Shown here: in pieces, positions 26,126-50,261 of the stretch
Position numbering within the stretch: position 1 is the stretch's first letter
Layout of the letters: each line of letters starts with the position of its first letter
NCBI GenBank assembly: GCA_038061225.1
Contig: JBBTZT010000002.1
Coordinates: 12,655 to 76,654 of the forward strand
Length of the DNA: 64,000 nucleotides
Source: Patescibacteria group bacterium
Lineage (GTDB): Bacteria > Patescibacteriota > Microgenomatia > UBA8517
Reading direction: 5' to 3'
Made by a program: the position numbers and the translations under genes
The notes under the pieces: generated by a model
What the model saw: the letters and a program-made list of their open reading frames with translations, nothing else
What the model was told of the DNA's origin: nothing
Database searches by the model: none

Positions 26126-26554
26126 TCAAAAATTGTTTTCTATTTTCCCGTTGAGGTCTAATTCTTCATTCACCAAATCATCAGCCAAAGTGTTCTTGGT
26201 TCTATAATCCCACTGAAACTTAATTGATAAAGAAGAATTAAGAATTAAGAATTTTATTTGATTAAATAAAATTTTTAATTTTGGGTTTTTAACTTTATAA
26301 AAACCTTTAAGCTGTCTTTCAATAAGTTGAGAGTCAAGATTAATAACGACAGGCGAAAAGTGATTAGTGGTTGGTGATTGGTGAGTAAGCCATTCAATCG
26401 CCATTAACACTGCTGTGTATTCAGCAACGTTGTTTGTCTCCATACCTAAAAACTTACTTTCTTTGTAAATTGTTTTTCCATTTTCAGTCACAACAATGGC
26501 TGAAGCTGCAGGTCCTGGATTACCTCTTGAACCACCATCGCAATATATAATCAT
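26126..26554 (-). CDS. rnhA: Ribonuclease HI
   Basis: IIYCDGGSRGNPGPAASAIVV...ETNNVAEYTAVLMAIEW and a C-terminal D...D. Confidence 0.8.
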   Translation of the reverse strand: MIIYCDGGSRGNPGPAASAIVVTENGKTIYKESKFLGMETNNVAEYTAVLMAIEWLTHQSPTTNHFSPVVINLDSQLIERQLKGFYKVKNPKLKILFNQIKFLILNSSLSIKFQWDYRTKNTLADDLVNEELDLNGKIENNF

Positions 26555-29662: not shown

Positions 29663-31030
29663 GAAAAACAAAACTACGACAAAACTTGGAGAGATGTTTT
29701 AGAAACATTAAAAATATCTGTTTCTGATGCTGCTTTTAAAACATATTTATCTCATACACATTTAGTTGATATAAAAGAAATAGGAGAAAGAGTTATTGCC
29801 CAAGTTGGTTGTGAATCTATCTTTATCAAACAACAGGTTGAACAAAGATATTCAGGAATACTACAAGACACATTAACAAAACAATTTGAAAAAATAGTTG
29901 ATATTGTTTTTATAGTAAAAGCATCTCACCAATCACCAATCACTAGCCACAAAACACCTTCACCATTGTTTGACCAACCAAAAATAAACCAGGAGGAAAT
30001 AAACGAGGCTGTTAAAAAAGCCCATCTTAGGCTTCCTTTCACTTTTGACAAATTTGCAGTTTCTGGGTCTAATCAAATGGCCTATGCAGCTGCCCAAGCT
30101 GTTGCAGAAAAACCAGGATCTTCATATAACCCTTTGTTTATTTGGGGTGGGGTGGGGGTAGGAAAAACTCATTTAATGCACGCTGTGGGACATGAAATGA
30201 TTGTTAAAAAAACTGGTTCAAAAATTTTAGCTTGCACAGCAGAGGATTTTACAAATGACATTGTTGATGGAATAAGAAACAAGTCAACAGCAGAAGTTAG
30301 AAAAAAGTACAGAAAACTTGATGCTTTGTTTGTTGACGATATTCAGTTTATTGCAGGTAAAGATACTGCTCAAGAAGAGTTTTTTCACACCTTTAATGCT
30401 GTTACTTCTGCGGGGGGGCAGGTAATACTTACCTCAGACAAAAAGCCAACTGAAATTTCAAAACTAGAAGATAGATTAAAAACCAGATTTCAAGCAGGAT
30501 TAATTGTCGATGTGTCCCCACCAGATTTTGAACTTAGGTCTGCAATAGTACAAATTAAATCAGAGGAAAGAGGAATAATTCTTACCAACGAAATGGTTTC
30601 AATGATTGCTGGAAACATTGATTCAGCCAGAGGAATACAAGGATATTTAGTAAAGCTGTTTACCGAAGTAAATTTTAACAAAAAGGAAGTAACAAATGAA
30701 TTAATAGAATATCTTTTGGGTAAAACAAATGAAGCAGATTATGAAAAAATTAAAATAAACCCAGAAGACTTGATAAATAAAATTGCTAAATATTATTCAC
30801 TGGGGAAAAGACAGCTATTAGGAGACTCAAGAGCCCTGCCTGTAGTAAGACCGAGACAAATTTTAATGTATCTTTTAAGAAAACAGGTTGGGCTACCTCT
30901 TCAAGAGGTTGGTAGGGTGGTAGGGAGAGACCATTCTACGGTAATGAGTGCTGTGGAAAAAATAACTAATTTACTCTCAACTAATGTGGATATTCAAGAG
31001 GATATTATGGGGATAAAAAAATCCCTTTGA
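29660..31030 (+). CDS. dnaA: Chromosomal replication initiator DnaA
   Basis: AAA+ Walker A GGVGVGKTHL, Walker B LFVDDIQF, and a C-terminal DNA-binding helix (VGRDHSTVMSAVEKI). Confidence 0.95.
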   Translation: MEKQNYDKTWRDVLETLKISVSDAAFKTYLSHTHLVDIKEIGERVIAQVGCESIFIKQQVEQRYSGILQDTLTKQFEKIVDIVFIVKASHQSPITSHKTPSPLFDQPKINQEEINEAVKKAHLRLPFTFDKFAVSGSNQMAYAAAQAVAEKPGSSYNPLFIWGGVGVGKTHLMHAVGHEMIVKKTGSKILACTAEDFTNDIVDGIRNKSTAEVRKKYRKLDALFVDDIQFIAGKDTAQEEFFHTFNAVTSAGGQVILTSDKKPTEISKLEDRLKTRFQAGLIVDVSPPDFELRSAIVQIKSEERGIILTNEMVSMIAGNIDSARGIQGYLVKLFTEVNFNKKEVTNELIEYLLGKTNEADYEKIKINPEDLINKIAKYYSLGKRQLLGDSRALPVVRPRQILMYLLRKQVGLPLQEVGRVVGRDHSTVMSAVEKITNLLSTNVDIQEDIMGIKKSL

Positions 31031-41922: not shown

Positions 41923-44028
41923 ATGTCTGAAATACCACTATCAGTTGAACCACAAAAAAACAGCAGAAGTTTTACAGAAATACAAGAGGATCTTTATTCA
42001 TTTAAAAATTCACCAAATCCTGAGAAAGAGAGAGAATTAAGAATAGAGAGAGCAAGACTTATAAATGAAGCTAAAGAAGTTGGAATTTTTGTTTCAATGA
42101 AACATCATCTTTTAGATATTCAAACAAACAATCCTTCAATAACAACATCTGCACCACTAATTAACTCAATTAATGTACAAAGGTTAGAAGATGAAGCAAA
42201 AGGCTTAAGTGGTTGGGATGATAAGTTTGATGGATTGCTTCAAGCTTATAAGGAGGGAGCTCTTAGAAATATGAGTCTTGCTTTTTTAAAAAAAACTAAC
42301 GGCAGTGTCTTAGAGGTGGCAGATATCGAAAAAGAAATTGATTTATTAAATTGGGGTACTCCACCGGCCTTGGTGAATTCAATGCCGATTCAGCCAGAAC
42401 TAGCTACACAAAATGGTGGAATGGATCCTCATGAATTTGCTCGTGCAATGGCGGAAGCACAGGGTTTACAGACACCAGAAAAATATTTACAGGATGCGTT
42501 GGATACAGAGGAATATTTAAAAACAGCCTTTCAAATCGTTCCCGGAGCTGAGCCAAGATTTTGGCCAATTCTTACAGAAGAACAAAAAGCAGAATGGCAA
42601 GTTAGAGCAACTTTATTAATTGCAGCTTATAAGAAAAACAATGCAGATGGCACTGATAAGTTATATATGGGAGAAAGAAAGGAAATGGCTGTTGATTTGG
42701 GAAAACTAGCGCAACAGAGAATTTTTAAGAAACCTGGGGTCTTAGCGACCGTTGGAGTATATGGAACAGTAATAGGTGATAAAAAATTCAGAGATTGGCA
42801 AAAATTAGAGGATGTCGAGTATGAAGAAGATGTCAAAAACAAGGATGGAAGTATTAGACACAAAAAGGGAGACATCAAACATAAAGGTCTTTATAATGCA
42901 GACGGCACTCCGTCCGATATAAATCTAAAGAAAGTTTTTTGCGAAGTATTAAAGAATGACGATATTAAAAAATCCTTGATAAATGATTATGGTAAGGATT
43001 TACTTCATAAATTATTAGCATCAGAGATTAAATTACAGGAAGGTTGTGCAGATAGTTTTTATCCGCACAAAGATAAAATACAAGGAACGCCAATTGACGA
43101 AAAGTCATTTAGAGAGACAAGAAAATCAGTAAGACATTGGTTATTAACGAAAGGACGAGATTTGTTGTTGTCTGAGGATGAATTAGCAAATAGAGATGAG
43201 TTTTTTGATACCAGATTTAGTTCAAAAGAAGACTTGTTTAAAGAAATGTCACTCCGTGCTCGCGAAGCAGAGCAGATTGCGTGGAATTATATCTATATAA
43301 CTGACTTAATCGAAAATTTTGATAGTCGAGAATATAGACCTGAAGGGACAGGAAGATTATTTCCAAGCTCTTTCTGGCAACTTTTTCAATGGGTTCCTAT
43401 GCATCCCCAAGAAAGATTTGAAGCTAAAATTAGAAGAGATCTAGATCCGAAAGAACATTGGTCATCCTTAGGTACTTGGGGAGTTTATCAAATTACCCAT
43501 GGAGGATTAAGAGATGAAAAAGGAAACTTTAAAGTACCTGATTCCTTAAAAGTTTTGCCAGACACTTTAATAAGAAGTCCTCTTTTACCACAAAGATTCA
43601 AAAAAGGAAAAGGTGAGGAGGAATCCCTTTTTACTATTTTTAATGGAATAGGCAACAATGTTTTATCAGGTGATATTTCGACTATTTCAAATACTGAATT
43701 GTTTAATAGAATTAATTGGGAAAAGATGGATGATGGTCCATTTGTACCATATGTTTACGATGAAATGAGATGGGCTGATGTTGTTACAAATGTATTTAAA
43801 AAAGGTGGGAAAAGAGAAAGTAAGGTTAGTGGAGAGGATTTGAGCGAGGCAGTATATAATCTTGGGCTTAACAGAAGACAGAGAGAATTACTGCTTTTAT
43901 CTTATTTGAATCGTGTAGGAATAGATCCAATGGCTAGTACATTAAAACCAGCAGTTAATTTAATTGCCTTTAAGGGCGCCATGGATGGTTTTTTACATGA
44001 TAATCCAAATTATTTTTACGGCGTTTAA
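41923..44028 (+). CDS. Hypothetical large soluble protein (701 aa)
   Basis: A long, charged ORF with no TM and no known motif. Confidence 0.4.
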   Translation: MSEIPLSVEPQKNSRSFTEIQEDLYSFKNSPNPEKERELRIERARLINEAKEVGIFVSMKHHLLDIQTNNPSITTSAPLINSINVQRLEDEAKGLSGWDDKFDGLLQAYKEGALRNMSLAFLKKTNGSVLEVADIEKEIDLLNWGTPPALVNSMPIQPELATQNGGMDPHEFARAMAEAQGLQTPEKYLQDALDTEEYLKTAFQIVPGAEPRFWPILTEEQKAEWQVRATLLIAAYKKNNADGTDKLYMGERKEMAVDLGKLAQQRIFKKPGVLATVGVYGTVIGDKKFRDWQKLEDVEYEEDVKNKDGSIRHKKGDIKHKGLYNADGTPSDINLKKVFCEVLKNDDIKKSLINDYGKDLLHKLLASEIKLQEGCADSFYPHKDKIQGTPIDEKSFRETRKSVRHWLLTKGRDLLLSEDELANRDEFFDTRFSSKEDLFKEMSLRAREAEQIAWNYIYITDLIENFDSREYRPEGTGRLFPSSFWQLFQWVPMHPQERFEAKIRRDLDPKEHWSSLGTWGVYQITHGGLRDEKGNFKVPDSLKVLPDTLIRSPLLPQRFKKGKGEEESLFTIFNGIGNNVLSGDISTISNTELFNRINWEKMDDGPFVPYVYDEMRWADVVTNVFKKGGKRESKVSGEDLSEAVYNLGLNRRQRELLLLSYLNRVGIDPMASTLKPAVNLIAFKGAMDGFLHDNPNYFYGV

Positions 44029-44043
44029 GATAATATTACAAGA

Positions 44044-45579
44044 CTAATGTTTAGATAGAAGGGATTTGAGTGATTGTAGAAAAGTAGAAGTCTGATAAGC
44101 GGCTTGGTTCTCAGTTCGATAATTTTCATATGTATCAATTCCTTTTGATGCACCGAGCTTACCAAGTGCAACAATAGATCCAACTGTTTCTCCAATTGAG
44201 CTCCCATAAGCAAAAGGCTTTCCTGTTATCAATCCTTGTATAATTTCTACTACTTTAGTAGCTTGACTGAAAATAACAAAACTTACAACAATCCAGATAA
44301 TATTATCTGTATATATTTCACCTAGAAAGGGTATTGGCCATGCATTGTTACCAATAATATCATGTTTTGGGTTTCCGAATATAGTTTTAGCAGTAATACC
44401 TGACATAAAACCTGACGACCCTTGTACCAAGAAAAAGAATGAAAAAAAGAATATCATTCCAAGTAATGGATAAACAGCCAGATATGATATCAGCTTTTTA
44501 AGCCAGCCTCCGAAGGTTGACTTTCCCGTAAAAGCACCCATTAATATTTCAAGTGGTCCGATCGCAATTGTTAGTACAACCATAGCAAAATTTTTAAGAA
44601 TAACATAAATAATTTTTATCGACCAAAATATTATAAATAAAATTGAGAGGAAGGCAAATATAATTAATAGCAAAGAGATTTCAAAGGAGGATGTAAATAA
44701 TGTAAGAAATGCATTATAAAAAAAGGCGACCCAATAGGAATACATTAATCCAAAAGCGCTATGGTTTGTTGTAAGTTCATCAAATAAATCTTTGAAATCG
44801 TGGCCGCTAAAACCACTAGTTATCAATAAACTTGTAATGAGCCCTATCACAACATACATCAAATCAATTGCAAAACCTGCAATTGCGTAAGAAAAAGTAA
44901 TTAATATGGTTGTAAAGATTATATTTGGTAAGGCTGATTGAACTGAAATTACCAATTGAGGAGAAATTTTCATCCTAAACATTATCATAAAAGAAATAAC
45001 TATAACTGCCAAGACAAGTAAAGCGTAACTAATATCCCTAGTGGCCTGCCACAGTTTTTTGATAGAATCTGCACCAGTATTAAATCCAAAACCCTGTGCA
45101 TTGACTTCGGTAACGGGGTTAAATTTATTAATCAGATTTTTTACATAGCCAATACCGGATATTGGATTTTGGCCAATTGCGTTTAAAACTGGATTATTTG
45201 AAGCTATGTTTTGAGTAGAAGTGTCTGTAAGTGCATCGAGTGTTTCCTTAACACTTTTAAGACAATCAAGAGTTGGATGTTTTCCTATAAGACAAGTAGC
45301 TGTTTTAGGGTTTCCTGGAACTAAATTTAACACCATTGAAAATAAAGAATAAAAAATCCACTGTACTTGAGCTGCAGTGTATCTTTCTCCAAAAATTTCA
45401 CTTGGTGGAGAAGATTCATCATCATATACTTTTAAATACCAATCGAAAGGGCCTTGGTTGTACCAAGTGCTTGGGGCGGGGTCTGCTGCAAGGGCAACTG
45501 CAAAAGGCATGGCCATAGAATTAAGAAATAATAATGAAGAGAGAAGAATTAAACTGATTTTTTTGGTTAAATTTGACAT
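44044..45579 (-). CDS. Secreted polytopic membrane protein, possibly VirB6/TrbL-like
   Basis: Signal peptide ending AVALAADPAPSTWYNQG, an extracellular domain of about 150 aa, then 6 or more TM helices. Its N-terminal 70 aa are duplicated at 46157..46378. Confidence 0.4.
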   Translation of the reverse strand: MSNLTKKISLILLSSLLFLNSMAMPFAVALAADPAPSTWYNQGPFDWYLKVYDDESSPPSEIFGERYTAAQVQWIFYSLFSMVLNLVPGNPKTATCLIGKHPTLDCLKSVKETLDALTDTSTQNIASNNPVLNAIGQNPISGIGYVKNLINKFNPVTEVNAQGFGFNTGADSIKKLWQATRDISYALLVLAVIVISFMIMFRMKISPQLVISVQSALPNIIFTTILITFSYAIAGFAIDLMYVVIGLITSLLITSGFSGHDFKDLFDELTTNHSAFGLMYSYWVAFFYNAFLTLFTSSFEISLLLIIFAFLSILFIIFWSIKIIYVILKNFAMVVLTIAIGPLEILMGAFTGKSTFGGWLKKLISYLAVYPLLGMIFFFSFFFLVQGSSGFMSGITAKTIFGNPKHDIIGNNAWPIPFLGEIYTDNIIWIVVSFVIFSQATKVVEIIQGLITGKPFAYGSSIGETVGSIVALGKLGASKGIDTYENYRTENQAAYQTSTFLQSLKSLLSKH

Positions 45580-45617
45580 TTGTATGTATTTATATTATCA
45601 TAATAATCAAATTGGCG

Positions 45618-46124
45618 TTAGCCACGACCTTCTTGCTTAGGCAGGAAGGGTAAAATAAAAAATTTAGAAATTTCTTCATTAACTTTCAGAAAATCTCCAT
45701 CATCAATTACAGCTAATTTGTACCAAATTCGTTTGCTACTAAAAACTCTAATCTGCGAAGTCATTGCTGAGACGATTTCGTCTTTGACTGAAATTCGAAT
45801 ATAATATTTGTTATCTTTTAGTTTTGTACTCAATGGTACGCCTAAAAACAATTCTCTGTTGAACTTTTTGACTACTAAAACAGGACGAATAAATATATCG
45901 TTCTTTCCATCTTCTTCAAAACCAACATTTACACCAATTGATGTCCACCATATATCGCGTTCGTTAAATTGTGGAGAAGCAGTAACTTTATTGTTTATTT
46001 CCTTTTTCTTTTCTATCCATTTATCAAAGTTCTTAACATGAATATTATTAGACGAAGTAAGTACAGATTGAGAAGCGATTTTAGCAATTGAATCTTCTAT
46101 CGTTTTATCTATTTTGGCAGGCAT
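45618..46124 (-). CDS. MazF/PemK-family toxin-like protein with a 55-aa N-terminal extension and no cognate antitoxin seen
   Basis: RDIWWTSIGVNVGFEEDGKNDIFIRPVLVVKKFNRELFLGVPLSTKLKDNKYYIRI. This matches the family pattern GDIW.V...G.E..G.RPVLVV...N.....VP.TS. Confidence 0.5.
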   Translation of the reverse strand: MPAKIDKTIEDSIAKIASQSVLTSSNNIHVKNFDKWIEKKKEINNKVTASPQFNERDIWWTSIGVNVGFEEDGKNDIFIRPVLVVKKFNRELFLGVPLSTKLKDNKYYIRISVKDEIVSAMTSQIRVFSSKRIWYKLAVIDDGDFLKVNEEISKFFILPFLPKQEGRG

Positions 46125-46156
46125 GAAGAAATTATAACATTTATATTCTGAGAATA

Positions 46157-46378
46157 TTAGCCAAAGATTTCAGATGGGGGGGATTCGTCGCCGTAGACCT
46201 TTGCATACCAATCAGTAAAACCTTGGTTGTACCAAGTGCTTGGGGCGGGGTCTGCTGCAAGGGCAACTGCAAATGGCATGAAGAGGGAATTTAAAAACAG
46301 TAAGGTGGAAAGAAAAATTAAGCAAAGCTTGCCACTTCGTGGTAAACTGATTTTTTTGGTTAAGCTTGACAAGTTCAT
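46157..46378 (-). pseudogene. Duplicated 5' fragment (73 codons) of the 44044..45579 gene, with its own leader copy
   Basis: MNLSSLTKKISL...FMPFAVALAADPAPSTWYNQGFTDWYAKVYGDESPPSEIFG* compared with MSNLTKKISL...AMPFAVALAADPAPSTWYNQGPFDWYLKVYDDESSPPSEIFGERY.... The two copies share about 53 identical nt. A C7 homopolymer lies inside the fragment. Confidence 0.6.
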
Positions 46379-46410
46379 GATTTATTATATGATATCTTTA
46401 TCGCTATTAC

Positions 46411-46440
46411 CTCGGGGAAACCCGAGGCTTTTTTTGTTTT
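46411..46440 (+). terminator. GC hairpin plus T-tract (intrinsic-terminator-like), present only in the copy-B leader
   Basis: CCTCGGGGAAACCCGAGG followed by CTTTTTTTGTTTTTT. Confidence 0.4.
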
Positions 46441-46531
46441 TTAATTTTGAAAATAGATTTTCCATTTGAGTAATGTTTAACATAAATACAATTTAATCAT
46501 ATCATATATTCAAATTGGCACTAGCCACGGG

Positions 46532-47497
46532 TTAAACTTCACTGATTACATCAAAGCCTTTAAAACTCCCAACTATTGCTAAACCATAAATTTTCCCTGT
46601 GCAAATTCCTCTTCTTTTGATTTGTAAAGCCGTTTCGTTTAGGGTTGATCCTGAACCTACCGCATCATCAATCAAAAGTATGTTTTTGTGTTTATTGTTG
46701 TCGTCAACAATGATGGTATTTCTTGCATTTTGTATTCTATCTTCTATCTTGGTTAGTGTTTTTTGGGGAACAGCCACGTCTGTTTTTGCCTTTGTGATAG
46801 ATATTAGTTTTGAATCTAAATTTAAATGTTTTTGAATAACCTTCATTAATTGGAACTCTCTTTTAACAGTTGGAGGGATAAACCCAACACTAGTAATCTT
46901 ATTTTTTTTGATTAATTTAATAATTTTAGACTTTATTTGTAGAGAGATCTCTTTCATAAGTTTTTTGTTTTGGCTTTGTTTAGCATACAAAAGTAGTTGT
47001 CCGAGTTTTGTTTTTCCAAATTTCTCGATTGAATAAAAATCCAGATAATACACACTGTCAAGACCAATTGTAGAAAATGTATTTACTAATTTAAGTGTTC
47101 CGTCAATAAAATCATTCTTTTTGTATTTTTTATATATATTAAATGTTTTTATGTATTCTAATGCGGTCTTTTCAATTGGTTGTTTAGTTTTGTTGCACCA
47201 TGCAACAAAACCACTTACTCCATCAACTTTTTCTCCATCAGGTGAAATATATAAATAATTTTTATTGACAAAATCAGAGACCTTTTTTTTTAAATCGTAG
47301 CTTTGAATACTTTTTTCTCTAGAAATATAGTAGAAAACTTTTGGGGGTATACCAATTTTTGAAACAATTCCTCGTTTTAGCAATGTAGATAATTGCTTCC
47401 TTACAGCTCTATCAGTTATATCGAAAACATCAGAAAGTTCTTTTCCTGTAACTTTTTCGTGCTTGTTTAGATACTCAATTAATAAATTCATAGCCAT
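46532..47497 (-). CDS. N-terminal winged-HTH + C-terminal phosphoribosyltransferase-domain protein (ComF/PRTase-like)
   Basis: HTH GKELSDVFDITDRAVRKQLSTLLKRGIV. PRPP-binding ILLIDDAVGSGSTLNET. Confidence 0.5.
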   Translation of the reverse strand: MAMNLLIEYLNKHEKVTGKELSDVFDITDRAVRKQLSTLLKRGIVSKIGIPPKVFYYISREKSIQSYDLKKKVSDFVNKNYLYISPDGEKVDGVSGFVAWCNKTKQPIEKTALEYIKTFNIYKKYKKNDFIDGTLKLVNTFSTIGLDSVYYLDFYSIEKFGKTKLGQLLLYAKQSQNKKLMKEISLQIKSKIIKLIKKNKITSVGFIPPTVKREFQLMKVIQKHLNLDSKLISITKAKTDVAVPQKTLTKIEDRIQNARNTIIVDDNNKHKNILLIDDAVGSGSTLNETALQIKRRGICTGKIYGLAIVGSFKGFDVISEV

Positions 47498-47541
47498 ATT
47501 GTATATAGTTCCTAGTTCCTAGTGTACTAGGAACTGTAAAT

Positions 47542-49131
47542 TTGTCAAGACCTTGTAATCAAAAACTGTTTGTAGCATACTTTTGTTTAGTGTTAACTAA
47601 AATTCTATCCGCTTCACATTTTGGTTTGGAACCAAATTTAATAGAAGTTGAAGTAAATGTTTTTAAAAAAGGATTTCCTGGATTTTCGATAATTGGCCTT
47701 CCTAATAAATCAATTGAAGAGGCAAAAGAAAGAGTAAAAACTGCGCTATTAAATTCTAATATCAATTTTCCAAATCAAAAAATTGTAGTAAATTTAGCTC
47801 CCGCCGATATCCCTAAAGAAGGATCTTTGTATGATTTACCTATCGCTATTGGAATTTTAGCTTCTATGGAACTTATCAAATTGCCAACGGAAAAATCATT
47901 TTTTTACGGTGAATTATCATTGGATGGAGGCCTTCGTCATACCAAAGGGGTTTTTCTTTTAGGACTCGCTGCAAAACAAAAAGGAATCAAAAATATTTTT
48001 GTACCATCAGATTCTGCCAACGAAGCCGCTGTTTTATCAAGTATTGATGTTTACCCTGTTTTTTCTTTAAAAGAATTAATTGCACATCTAAATGGTGTAA
48101 AGAAAATAGAAAAATTATCCTACTCCGCCAAAGGCTTCGCGGGACCACATTCAGAAGATCTGAATGTGGAGTTTGATTTCTCAGAGATAATTGGTCAAGA
48201 GTCAGCCAAAAGGGCAATGACAATTGCTGCTGCAGGAGGTCATAATATTTTTTTAATTGGAACACCAGGGGCTGGAAAAACAATGCTTGCAAGAGCTACA
48301 GCGGGCATTTTACCGCCACTAAATGAAGAAGAGGCTTTGGAGGTTACCAAAATTTATTCTGTATCTGGATTAATTCCTGCAGGTGAGGGGTTAATTAGAA
48401 GTAGGCCTTTTAGAACAGCACACCACACAACAAGCCTTATTGGTTTAATAGGAGGTGGAACAAATCCTCATCCTGGAGAAATTTCACTTGCTCACAATGG
48501 TGTTTTATTTCTGGATGAATTTCCAGAATTTTCAAGGGGAACACTTGAGGCTTTGAGGCAACCTTTAGAAGATAGAAAAGTTTCCATAACCAGAATTGCA
48601 GGAAGCGCAGAATTTCCCGCTAGCTTTATGTTAATCGCAGCTGCAAATCCCTGTCCCTGTGGATATCTAGGAGATCCAAAAAGAGAATGTAAATGCACAC
48701 CAAGAATGGTTATGAATTATCAATCAAGACTTTCTGGCCCTTTAATGGATAGAATTGATTTACATTTAAATGTTCCAGCGGTGGATGTTAATAAACTTAT
48801 GACTAATAACTCATCACTCGTAACCCGTAACTCCAAAACAATTCGTGAACAAGTAATTAAGGCAAGAAATATACAAAATAAAAGGTTTAAAGGATTATCA
48901 GTTTTTGTAAATGCCAATATGAAAAATAAACATATTAAAGAATTTGTAGAAATAACACCTGAATCACTACTTTTACTTAAGCAAGCAGTAAATACATATA
49001 ATTTATCTGCTAGAACTTATTTTAGATTAATTAAAGTAGGTCAAACAATTGCAGACTTGGCAGATTCCACGAGTATACTTCCAAATCATGTCGCCGAAGC
49101 ACTTCAATACAGAGTAAGAACAAATGACTAA
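47542..49131 (+). CDS. comM: ComM/YifB Mg-chelatase-like AAA+ ATPase. The true start is probably an internal GTG/TTG.
   Basis: ChlI-type N-terminal LEPNLIEVEVNV...GFPGFSIIGLP, Walker A LIGTPGAGKTMLA, Walker B VLFLDEFPEF, and a C-terminal Mg-chelatase domain. Confidence 0.8.
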   Translation: MSRPCNQKLFVAYFCLVLTKILSASHFGLEPNLIEVEVNVFKKGFPGFSIIGLPNKSIEEAKERVKTALLNSNINFPNQKIVVNLAPADIPKEGSLYDLPIAIGILASMELIKLPTEKSFFYGELSLDGGLRHTKGVFLLGLAAKQKGIKNIFVPSDSANEAAVLSSIDVYPVFSLKELIAHLNGVKKIEKLSYSAKGFAGPHSEDLNVEFDFSEIIGQESAKRAMTIAAAGGHNIFLIGTPGAGKTMLARATAGILPPLNEEEALEVTKIYSVSGLIPAGEGLIRSRPFRTAHHTTSLIGLIGGGTNPHPGEISLAHNGVLFLDEFPEFSRGTLEALRQPLEDRKVSITRIAGSAEFPASFMLIAAANPCPCGYLGDPKRECKCTPRMVMNYQSRLSGPLMDRIDLHLNVPAVDVNKLMTNNSSLVTRNSKTIREQVIKARNIQNKRFKGLSVFVNANMKNKHIKEFVEITPESLLLLKQAVNTYNLSARTYFRLIKVGQTIADLADSTSILPNHVAEALQYRVRTND

Positions 49132-49489
49132 GCAATTTAACAGAATTAAAGGAAAAGATGGAGAGGAGATGGCTGCAAAGTGGTTGAAAGATCGAGGATA
49201 TAAGATTATAGATAAAAACAATTCAACAAAATTCGGAGAATTAGATATTATTGCTAGTAAAAACGATATATTAATTTTTGTTGAAGTAAAATTTAAACAA
49301 ACAGAAAACTTTGGAACGCCTGAAGAAATGATTGGAAAAAATAAATTAATGCAGGTTAGAAGAACGGCAGAATTATATTTATTAAATAACCCTGATATTG
49401 CAAAATTTTATGATAGATATCAAATAGATGCAGTTTGTATAGTAGAGGATACGGGTAGAATATCACATTATGAAAATCTTACATTTTAG
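49124..49489 (+). CDS. yraN: YraN-family (UPF0102) endonuclease
   Basis: GKDGEEMAAKWLKDRGYKIIDKN...GELDIIASKNDILIFVEVKFKQ. Confidence 0.7.
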   Translation: MTKQFNRIKGKDGEEMAAKWLKDRGYKIIDKNNSTKFGELDIIASKNDILIFVEVKFKQTENFGTPEEMIGKNKLMQVRRTAELYLLNNPDIAKFYDRYQIDAVCIVEDTGRISHYENLTF

Positions 49490-50261
49490 AGGAGTAGATC
49501 CTAATTCTATTAACAAAAAGTCTATTGCAGTTGTTGGTAGTCGTCAAATGACAAGGTATGGTAGAGATGTGGTTGATAAATTCGTGTGCGATTTTGTTGC
49601 TAATGGAGTAACAACAATCTCTGGTTTTATGTATGGCGTGGATACTGAAGTTGCAAAGAAAACACTTGAATATGGAGGAAAACACATTGCAATTTTTGGC
49701 TGTGGTCTGGACCATATTTATCCACCTGAAAACAAAAAGTTATATGAAGAGATTTTAAAAAGTGGAGGATCAATTGTTTCTGAGTATGAAGATTCGGCAA
49801 AACCAAGTATCTGGAAATTCCCACAAAGAAACAAAATTGTAGCTAGCCTCGCCTCACTTGGGGTTCTTGTTATTGAGGCGGGTAGCGGGAGTGGATCACT
49901 TGTAACTGCCAAAATTGCAAAAAAAATGGGCAAGAAAGTTTGGGCAGTACCTGGGCCTATAAATTCAAGAGTTTCTGTTGGATGTAATGAATTAATAAAA
50001 TCAGGCGACGCCCAAATGGCCATTTGTGTGAGAGATATTATTAAGATTAAAACTACAGAAATTCAGAACTCAAGAATTCCAGATAATCTAAATACAGAAG
50101 AACAAAAAATATTTAAAATACTTCAACTAGAGCCTATGGAAATTGATGAGATTGCACAGAAATTAGAAGAAAATGTTGTAGAAGTTGGATCTACACTATC
50201 AATAATGGGGATTAAAGGGTTAGTTACGGAGAGTGGCGGAAAATATTTTTTAGTACGGTAG
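49470..50261 (+). CDS. dprA: DNA processing protein DprA/Smf (Rossmann core + C-terminal wH, no SAM domain)
   Basis: IAVVGSRQMTRYGRDVV...TISGFMYGVDTEVAKKTLEYGGKHIAIFGCGLDHIYPPEN. Located downstream of comM and yraN. Confidence 0.8.
   Translation: MKILHFRGVDPNSINKKSIAVVGSRQMTRYGRDVVDKFVCDFVANGVTTISGFMYGVDTEVAKKTLEYGGKHIAIFGCGLDHIYPPENKKLYEEILKSGGSIVSEYEDSAKPSIWKFPQRNKIVASLASLGVLVIEAGSGSGSLVTAKIAKKMGKKVWAVPGPINSRVSVGCNELIKSGDAQMAICVRDIIKIKTTEIQNSRIPDNLNTEEQKIFKILQLEPMEIDEIAQKLEENVVEVGSTLSIMGIKGLVTESGGKYFLVR

Follow-up and report, generated by a model that had tools for sequence, protein, structure and literature searches.

On a stretch of 64,000 nucleotides (nt) from a Patescibacteria genome of groundwater source (hereafter referred to as the window), a gene for a MazF/PemK-fold protein is located between an intact gene for a polytopic membrane protein (copy A) and a stranded duplicate of the 5′ end of that same gene (copy B). 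On balance, this arrangement is best explained as the insertion scar of a toxin cassette, with a predicted antisense RNA that would control the toxin. The insertion of a cassette with a long target duplication is the part of this explanation that we hold with good confidence. The region as a whole would then be a scar in several layers, left by small toxin cassettes at the 5′ end of the polytopic gene, a reading that we consider rather probable.

The proposed cassette would comprise (i) a promoter and a gene for a MazF-fold endoribonuclease, (ii) a convergent small-RNA gene on the opposite strand with a near-consensus promoter, a short hairpin and a long GC-rich hairpin, and (iii), in the lineage of the window, a replacement leader, start codon and signal-peptide stretch for the downstream gene. 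It would have entered by recombination within the conserved 5′ coding region, with a 53-nt core shared by the two copies as the mark of a crossover or of a conversion patch. Copy A would have been rebuilt intact downstream, and the resident leader and first 73 codons (copy B) would have been stranded upstream, where a hairpin motif with its promoter and a second promoter with a hairpin and a T7 run may represent relics of older cassettes. The RNA would act as an antitoxin or repressor, either by antisense base pairing with the toxin messenger RNA (mRNA) at its 3′ end, by transcriptional interference, or by protein binding. Compared with the first-pass annotation of this DNA, two elements would be new—a conserved antisense RNA gene that is tied to a MazF-like family without protein antitoxin, and a cassette whose spread is accompanied by long target duplications.

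The Duplicated Gene Start

Copy A encodes 511 amino acids (aa) on the minus strand, and its leader and first codons are repeated 0.8 kb upstream (Table 1). In a self-comparison, the wider repeat resolves into a 147-nt block at 78% identity and a 46-nt block at 78%. The 53-nt core occurs exactly twice in the window, with 0 occurrences expected by chance, and the 20-nt leader motif CGTGGCTANNGCCAATTTGA is likewise confined to two sites (45607-45626 and 46510-46529; chance expectation 0.07). The duplicated leader and 5′ gene fragment, to which the first-pass annotation had drawn attention, are borne out by all of these repeats, and the stretch that had been described as "essentially identical" proves to be exact and limited to two copies. 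Copy B is an intact open reading frame (ORF) of 73 codons whose stop falls right after ...PPSEIFG, midway through the motif that is best conserved in the family (SEIFG-ERYTAAQVQW, with the break at the hyphen).

The insert of about 0.9 kb (45627-46530) contains the copy-B fragment and the MazF-like gene as its only ORFs. No transposase, integrase or other mobility gene was found in the insert or beside it, where the neighbours are the ComF-like, ComM, YraN, DprA and secretion-system genes.

The arrangement itself is reproduced in independent assemblies. Contig L002 (L-numbers are labels of the related loci and contigs that were compared with the window), which derives from another sample, is 100% identical to window 45013-47052 and spans the complete structure, while contig L001 is 99.9% identical to window 43868-46246 and covers most of it. 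Because these independent contigs carry the arrangement, a collapsed or chimeric repeat can be set aside as scarcely credible, although the source is a metagenome-assembled genome and the contig names of L001 and L002 give a low coverage of ~3x. Furthermore, the copies are 78% identical outside the core, hence not collapsible, and homologous arrangements are present in related strains.

Table 1. Features of the duplicated region in the window (promoter scan scores are matches out of 12).
Feature	Position	Strand	Evidence or remark
Copy A, intact polytopic membrane gene (511 aa), insertion target	44044..45579	-	>1000 homologues; synteny
53-nt core, copy A	45452..45504	-	Near-identical tract of L129 stops at left edge, ~45493-45497
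Antisense-RNA promoter TTGACA-17-TATCAT	45573..45601	+	Promoter scan 11/12
Predicted antisense small-RNA module, leader repeat copy A	45606..45659	+	Model R2, 78.9 bits, E 3e-19
MazF/PemK-fold gene (168 aa)	45618..46124	-	Pfam, PDB profile, AlphaFold, Foldseek, family alignment
Spacer (32 nt) with extended -10 element TGTTATAAT at 46131-46139	46125..46156	-	Sequence
Copy B, stranded 5′ fragment of polytopic gene, intact 73-codon ORF	46157..46378	-	Signal peptide + 32 residues
C7 run in copy B (codons GAA TCC CCC CCA TCT)	46176..46182	-	Sequence
53-nt core, copy B	46221..46273	-	Identical to copy-A core
Promoter-like TTGACA-16-TATGAT	46366..46393	+	Promoter scan 11/12; -35 overlaps fragment codons 3-5
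Hairpin CCTCGGGGAAACCCGAGG followed by T7 run, intrinsic-terminator-like	46410..46437	+	Terminator scan; -14.8 kcal/mol, z -2.9
Putative relic antisense promoter TTAACA-17-TATCAT, directly upstream of relic hairpin 2	46477..46505	+	Promoter scan 10/12
Putative relic 5′ end of older cassette's antisense RNA, hairpin 2 only (TGGC-ACTA-GCCA), leader repeat copy B	46509..46529	+	Model R2, motif search
ComF-like helix-turn-helix + phosphoribosyltransferase gene (321 aa), upstream neighbour	46532..47497	-	Pfam HTH_11, Pribosyltran (weak); NCBIfam ComF, GntX (weak)

The MazF-Like Protein and Its Neighbours

The identification of the gene between the copies as MazF/PemK-like, already made in the first-pass annotation, is supported by several lines of evidence. 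Pfam PemK_toxin (PF02452) matches residues 57-156 with 37.2 bits against a cut-off of 23.1 (E 3.6e-9), the PHROG family 'MazF-like growth inhibitor' matches at E 3.5e-19, and a PDB profile search retrieved EndoA/YdcE at E 2e-3, with the RPVLV motif aligned in 4mdx. The AlphaFold model has a predicted local distance difference test (pLDDT) score of 72 overall and of 84-89 in the core, and the top matches of the Foldseek search of the PDB are all MazF (E 6e-7 to 3e-5; target template-modelling (TM) score 0.66-0.78). The modelled protein shows the SH3-like barrel fold of the MazF/Kid/CcdB type. Its catalytic residues, R80 of the RPVLV motif and S99/T100 of PLST, show little or no variation among 35 family members, and we take them to be the equivalents of R25 and T48 in Bacillus subtilis MazF. 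About 24 aa of what had been reported as a 55-aa N-terminal extension are indeed lineage-specific, whereas residues ~28-56 (K-x-F-D-x-W-I-x-K-K-K) are conserved in the family. The extended -10 element TGTTATAAT lies 6 nt 5′ of the start codon, where related loci have CTGNTATACT; it is presumably the promoter of the MazF-like gene and would imply a near-leaderless mRNA.

No conserved ORF family was found within 80 nt upstream of the MazF-like gene (121 loci) or within 250 nt downstream of it (112 loci). Its neighbours in the window are the gene fragment and the polytopic gene, and the recurrent downstream neighbours elsewhere are ychF (at least 13 loci), the polytopic gene, or a second MazF-like cassette (9 loci). 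The sole conserved companion of the MazF-like gene is an RNA module, which, we infer, would control the toxin. The first-pass statement that no antitoxin gene is adjacent holds for proteins in these 112-121 loci, but it overlooked the antisense RNA module.

A Predicted Convergent Small-RNA Module

In the window, the predicted module consists of hairpin 2 (45613-45624) and hairpin 1 (45628-45649), with a transcript start predicted near 45607-45609; this start, CAAAUUGGC, adjoins the stop codon of the MazF-like gene. The module overlaps the stop codon and the last codons, the last ~11 codons of the gene being encoded by the hairpins and hairpin 1 corresponding to the protein tail ...LPFLPKQEGRG. 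It folds with -20.7 kcal/mol (z -4.2). The 20-nt leader repeat CGTGGCTANNGCCAATTTGA constitutes the 5′ hairpin region of the RNA (hairpin 2), and the -35 element of the antisense promoter overlaps the start codon of the polytopic gene (ATGTCAA).

In homologues down to ~40% identity, the motif is found at or just past the stop codon of the MazF-like gene, and the module is present at the 3′ end of this gene in ~90 distant loci. Because the motif tracks the stop codon regardless of which gene lies downstream, the leader repeat belongs to the toxin family and not to the polytopic gene. The typical order on the sense strand is a GC-rich hairpin 1 (7-11 bp), a short linker, hairpin 2 (3-5 bp; TGGC/GCCA, TGCC/GGCA, GGCC/GGCC, GGC/GCC, GCC/GGC or GGG/CCC), ATTTG, an A(T/G)TATA box and, often, TGTCAA. 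Read on the opposite strand, this corresponds to a promoter TTGACA-16/18-TATAAT, 9-13 nt before hairpin 2. At this fixed position, an antisense promoter with a score of at least 10/12 is present in 76% of 55 unique elements, compared with 0.7% of shuffled and 0% of reversed sequences.

Two class-specific covariance models, R1 and R2 (R1 misses the class of the window), gave 41 and 48 matches, respectively, in ~0.7 Mb of sequence, nearly all of them antisense to a MazF-like gene, either at the 3′ end of this gene or, as relics, a short way upstream. In alignment A8, which was fitted to the model and, thus, favours structure, 99.6% of the cells pair and 11 of the 12 pairs show compensatory changes, with none of 500 shuffles reaching these values. 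In the sequence-based alignment of the window's class (class I), the corresponding figures are 97.4% of the cells and, for hairpin 1, six of nine pairs. Among the wobble pairs of hairpin 1, 30 work on the antisense strand only as opposed to 7 on the sense strand only. Modules that lie beyond the stop codon have a U-rich tail after hairpin 1 on the antisense strand; a terminator is predicted in most classes, and the RNA would there be only ~50-60 nt long. Taken together, promoter, covariation, wobble bias and U-rich tail lead us to interpret the module as a convergent small-RNA gene, and on these sequence features it is likely that this conserved antisense gene is real.

RNAalifold predicted no structure from a plain MAFFT alignment of 38 mixed-class elements; this is attributed to the misalignment of hairpin 1 in such an alignment, and, therefore, class-specific models were used. 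Rfam returned nothing relevant at E up to 1 in window 43000-48000 and no match at the element in eight element-bearing loci; the same holds for the element in L006, L007, L008 and L129, and ARAGORN detected neither transfer RNA (tRNA) nor transfer-messenger RNA in L006-L008.

The 3′ element might alternatively act on the sense strand or as DNA, namely as a stabiliser or terminator in the 3′ untranslated region of the toxin mRNA combined with an outward promoter, or as an attachment (att)-like site for a recombinase encoded elsewhere. Palindromic hairpins fold on either strand, the class of the window is devoid of the antisense U-tract, and the -10 box is nearly symmetric (TATAAT/ATTATA); a -10 box of such symmetry could also fire toward the downstream gene. 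Nevertheless, the full -35/-10 promoter is conserved on the antisense strand only, at a fixed distance, and both the wobble pairs and the U-rich tail of those classes whose element lies outside the coding region favour this same strand. The occurrence of the motif on both sides of the inserted segment in the window, L011 and L007 is indeed att-like; however, other loci lack it at the left boundary of the duplication, the breakpoints of a recently transferred tract in L129 (see below) fall within coding sequence, and no recombinase gene was noticed among the scanned neighbours. Taken together, we regard an action on the sense strand or as DNA as unlikely. Readings of the element as an integron attC site, a Xer/dif module or an IS200/IS605 end were also considered and discarded in view of the two separate short hairpins, the breakpoints in coding sequence and the lack of a noticed recombinase nearby.

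The interpretation as an antisense antitoxin has to be weighed against several points. The antisense RNA is a prediction; the window's class lacks a U-tract downstream of hairpin 1 on the antisense strand, and the hairpins fold on the sense mRNA as well. Tested for duplex formation with the translation initiation region of the MazF-like gene, the RNA gave no overall signal of pairing (mean z -0.5), the overlap at the 3′ end being the only pairing seen between RNA and toxin mRNA. Finally, some branches of the family may use a protein antitoxin, given the ORF downstream of the Nitratiruptor homologue described in the next paragraph. Hence, we regard it as possible rather than probable that the small RNA is the antitoxin of the MazF-like toxin.

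Homologues of the MazF-like gene are also found in Campylobacterota. On a Nitratiruptor plasmid (L132, NZ_AP023062.1, 1527-1790), the directly downstream ORF resembles a ribbon-helix-helix protein by eye only; hairpin 1, hairpin 2, ATTTAT and an antisense TTGCAT-17-TATAAT promoter are likewise discernible there by eye. The homologue in the Campylobacter prophage CJIE4-3 (L133, 1111-1705) stands alone between the terminase and portal genes, and its antisense strand carries a hairpin with a U-tract and a TGATATAAT box. Models R1 and R2 do not match these two homologues, so any extension of the module beyond Patescibacteria-type elements is tentative. In viral contigs, only two weak homologues of the MazF-like gene were found, which argues against phages as main carriers. 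A member of the family is also carried by the cultured Minisyncoccus archaeiphilus, at about 961-970 kb of strain PMX.108 (NZ_AP038758.1; locus L026).

Probable Insertion, Target Duplication and Transfer of the Cassette

In locus L004, the ComF-like gene is located 30 nt from the start of the polytopic gene, and neither the MazF-like gene nor the duplicate is present; both are equally missing from L003 and L005. These uninserted relatives are only ~60% identical to the window and belong to other species. Because all three lack the MazF-like gene and the duplicate, the window is concluded to carry the ~0.9-kb insertion. Repeats of more than 30 bp flank the insert, with the leader and 5′ coding region being present twice in the window and once in L003, L004 and L005. 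The first-pass proposal of a cassette insertion that displaced and duplicated the gene start is, thus, strengthened by the uninserted layout of L004, and also by the recurrence of the fragment-cassette-gene layout in other lineages and at other targets.

Directly upstream of the polytopic gene, the MazF-like cassette occurs in at least seven lineages (L006, L007, L008, L011, L093/L115, L101/L103 and L129). In L093, two units follow each other in series—fragment 1, MazF-like gene 1, RNA module, fragment 2, MazF-like gene 2, RNA module and, finally, the full polytopic gene—and the two MazF-like genes differ in subtype. At other targets, flanking repeats were found at the 5′ end of a gene to which the cassette supplies a new start codon and ~10 codons (L016; 74 nt, 92%), at the 5′ end of a malic-enzyme-like gene identified by eye (L050; 73 nt, 88%), at ychF (L105; at least 94 nt, 90%), and at the 3′ end of the upstream gene in L047 (75 nt, 92%) and L035 (34 nt, 91%).

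The gene ychF, encoding a GTPase, constitutes a second recurrent landing site. Its start lies 37-62 nt past the stop of the MazF-like gene (162 nt in L037) in at least 13 loci, among them L012, L037, L044, L096, L098, L099, L102, L105, L106 and L108-L110. At L030 (3545-4000), a complete bacterial ribonuclease P (RNase P) RNA (241 bits) ends exactly where the MazF-like match starts; there, an essential RNA gene directly adjoins the cassette. Two distant lineages have a small ORF between the MazF-like cassette and the polytopic gene (L007, 665-1039; L093, 2947-3207); that of L007 matches Pfam 23S_rRNA_IVP, while the likeness of the L093 ORF is by eye only.

The two copies of the gene start differ by 16 synonymous and 9 non-synonymous codon changes. 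Since synonymous differences outnumber non-synonymous ones, the copies are concluded to have diverged as working alleles and not as a gene and its decaying local duplicate. Locus L011 contains the MazF-like gene, leader, signal-peptide part, core and tail in one run. In the tail, copy B is closer to the intact L011 gene than copy A is (93% versus 85%), while in the signal-peptide part copy A is the closer one (89% versus 81%). A single crossover in the core, between the resident gene and an incoming, possibly circular cassette, would yield just this mosaic; with segments this short, the pattern is suggestive only.

A local partial tandem duplication followed by divergence and a conversion patch, with the MazF-like gene as a separate arrival or already present, would equally yield two copies. 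One perfect 53-nt block within direct repeats of 78% identity has the classic look of conversion, and tandem MazF-like cassettes do exist elsewhere (L057, L070, L120). The synonymous bias of the differences, however, implies that both copies evolved as working genes, the tail of copy B is closer to the L011 gene than to copy A, the serial units of L093 carry different MazF-like subtypes, and L129 shows the cassette and leader moving between differing polytopic alleles. We therefore consider a tandem origin quite improbable. Of the earlier suggestion of gene conversion or recent partial duplication, the first half fares well in that a conversion or crossover in the core is likely, but duplication is not the main story in view of the 16 versus 9 codon differences.

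Evidence for a recent movement comes from sister strain L129, which is ~99.7% identical to the window from 46066 to ~45497 (570 bp). This tract starts at about codon 20 of the MazF-like gene and includes the RNA module, leader, start and signal-peptide codons; its right breakpoint coincides with the left edge of the 53-nt core. In the flanks, identity drops to 60-84%, and the polytopic allele is a different one. A near-identical tract amid such diverged flanks indicates that the cassette and the replacement 5′ end have been moved recently by recombination. The copy-B fragment is absent from L129 as well as from L011, and in L008 it is reduced to a decayed tail that starts exactly at the right edge of the core.

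The fate of the fragment also bears on programmed variation, in which copy B would serve as a silent cassette for switching signal peptides or N-termini, as the first-pass annotation had suggested as an alternative, or in which the C7 run would act as an on/off switch. The ORF of copy B is intact with its own start and a TATAAT box, the identical 53-nt block could allow reciprocal exchange, and the C7 run is a possible slippage site. Against this, the fragment breaks off inside the best-conserved motif of its family, survives in L008 only as a decayed remnant, is missing from L129 and L011, and is the single spare copy in 64 kb; moreover, no recombinase was noticed among the scanned neighbours. 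The C7 tract, listed as a feature of the fragment in the first-pass annotation, recurs at equal length in the intact L011 and L008 orthologues, where it encodes E-S-P-P-S, and its length does not vary between the three assemblies and these two orthologues, contrary to the slippage suggested for it. Programmed variation is, thus, very improbable.

Turning back to the insertion of a cassette with target duplication, some observations fit it less well. Long target duplication predicts identical copies, but those of the window are 78% identical outside the core, and the intact reading frame of copy B is contrary to neutral decay. The mosaic segments are merely 60-75 nt long and statistically not decisive. 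On the left, the L129 tract breaks off within the MazF-like gene, so that ordinary homologous exchange, and not a defined element end, explains this transfer. Finally, a flanking duplication is detectable in only ~10% of the loci.

The Leader of Copy B and Possible Older Relics

Elements in the leader of copy B fit earlier cassette generations. The putative relic hairpin 2 yields a partial match to model R2 (46509-46555; 27.7 bits, E 7e-5), in which the hairpin-1 part is missing. The promoter preceding it agrees in its geometry with the family-wide antisense promoter, and the two together (46477-46529) begin straight after the ComF-like stop codon. The promoter-like site at 46366..46393 is, as read from the sequence, the positional homologue of the RNA promoter of copy A and is directly followed by the terminator-like hairpin with its T7 run, which lies within a ~100-nt stretch that is missing from copy A in the copy alignment. 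As stated in the first-pass annotation, this hairpin has no counterpart in copy A, but it would function as a terminator on the plus strand only, that is, antisense to all three genes. It might also keep antisense transcripts from running into the ComF-like gene.

Within its signal-peptide part, copy B carries 24 nt inserted in frame (46322-46345), which give rise to a plus-strand hairpin before a pre-existing T7 run; this hairpin (46329-46345) was considered as a second plus-strand terminator and dropped, its stability not being above that of shuffles (z -0.9).

At the position of copy B, L008 (2540-3330) and L129 (480-1180) contain a conserved non-coding stretch of ~400-770 nt that extends from the ComF-like to the MazF-like gene. 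It includes blocks of 88-94% identity, a minus-strand hairpin resembling a tRNA T-arm, GAGAGTTCGAATCTCTC, and predicted long-range pairing; it has no Rfam or ARAGORN match and is absent from all other loci. In addition, a 13-bp inverted repeat, AAGGTCAGACCTT...AAGGTCTGACCTT, is present upstream of the MazF-like gene in L011 (3833-3875) and L008 (3447-3489), with a half-copy in L129 (487-499). In L011 and L129 its position is behind the ComF-like stop, and in L008 it separates the fragment remnant from the MazF-like gene; it may represent a further small repeat element.

Genomic Neighbourhood

The polytopic family has more than 1000 homologues in Patescibacteria, all without annotation. The protein of the window has no match in Pfam, NCBIfam, PHROG or among PDB sequences, hence none to VirB6/TrbL; a VirB6/TrbL-type role is suggested solely by its many membrane spans and its position in a cluster with PrgI-like, TraC-like and VirB4-like genes. 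The synteny is conserved, with ComM-like, YraN-like and DprA genes, an optional ComF-like gene, the polytopic gene, a large convergent gene, and the PrgI-like, TraC-like and VirB4-like genes. Within the window, the ComM-like, YraN-like, DprA and ComF-like genes are found beside PrgI-like and VirB4-like ones (47542-50261 and 35573-39154). This neighbourhood is suggestive of DNA uptake as the function of the type IV secretion-like cluster, and such a function would favour the spread of the cassette via recombination.

Elsewhere in the window, a 26-nt inverted repeat (26360-26385 and 29925-29950), 88% complementary and GGTGATTGG-rich, flanks a 3.5-kb gene block. One of its arms contains GTGGCTAGTG, which is similar to hairpin 2, probably by chance.

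Significance and Comparison with Known Systems

If the antisense gene and its function hold true, a partnerless MazF-like family with a covarying antisense RNA gene would add an RNA-controlled branch to the MazF toxins and would explain many 'orphan MazF' annotations in Patescibacteria genomes. Likewise, the cassette would offer a small model from nature for how long target duplication arises, a mechanism that is still unsolved; the loci provide dozens of small natural examples, among them stacked generations of cassettes and at least one tract that was transferred very recently and has its breakpoints mapped. For genome annotation, the lesson is that short ORFs resembling secreted peptides can be the stranded 5′ ends of neighbouring genes. 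The presence of a family member in the cultured host Minisyncoccus archaeiphilus makes the RNA prediction directly testable.

MazF toxins are the textbook example of type II systems, in which the toxin is neutralised by a protein. The fold, the catalytic Arg and the Ser/Thr are shared with mazEF/pemIK, in contrast to the conserved extra N-terminal helix, the RNA module at the 3′ end, and the lack of an adjacent MazE/PemI-type gene in 112-121 loci. No report of a MazF-type toxin with an antisense or RNA antitoxin was found in literature searches. More tentatively still than for the antitoxin role itself, we propose that a MazF-fold toxin with a convergent two-hairpin RNA antitoxin could be a widespread toxin-antitoxin type for which no description was found, carried on a recombinase-free cassette of ~0.5-0.9 kb that would enter conserved genes at their 5′ ends through long target duplication and rebuild their starts. 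The association of a conserved RNA structure with pemK genes is reminiscent of the pemK RNA motif (Rfam RF02913); since neither this nor any other family was matched at the element when the window region and eight loci were scanned with Rfam, it is not a detectable member of RF02913.

In the type I systems txpA/RatA and bsrG/SR4 of Bacillus subtilis, the antisense RNA overlaps the 3′ end of the toxin gene, and the toxins are mostly small membrane peptides. The present system is similar in that a convergent, cis-encoded, structured RNA with its own promoter is predicted at the 3′ end of the toxin gene and that a protein antitoxin is lacking, but its toxin is a MazF-fold presumed endoribonuclease of 140-170 aa, and its RNA would have a length of ~50-60 nt in most classes. 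A further type I system, cjrA/cjpT, is known from Campylobacter. Type III, ToxIN-like systems have tandem-repeat RNA antitoxins that are located upstream of the toxin on the same strand and are processed by it. With these, the present system shares a presumed endoribonuclease toxin beside a predicted structured RNA gene, the covarying hairpins of which would suit protein binding; instead of upstream tandem repeats, however, there is a single convergent unit downstream of the toxin.

Concerning the mode of spread, insertion with long target duplication has been described for restriction-modification units by the Kobayashi laboratory, with an unexplained mechanism and mostly in naturally competent bacteria; according to that survey, the phenomenon was first described in an earlier comparison of genomes by this laboratory (Furuta et al. 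2010, PMC2853133). Common to both are a small selfish unit without transposase or integrase, imperfect direct repeats of tens to hundreds of bp that are single in the uninserted genome, and, matching the competent hosts of the restriction-modification units, a locus among ComM, DprA and ComF-like genes in the window. Different from these units, the cargo here consists of a MazF-like toxin and an RNA module, the 5′ ends of conserved genes (polytopic gene, ychF) are hit repeatedly and supplied with a new leader and start, and the cassettes stack in series.

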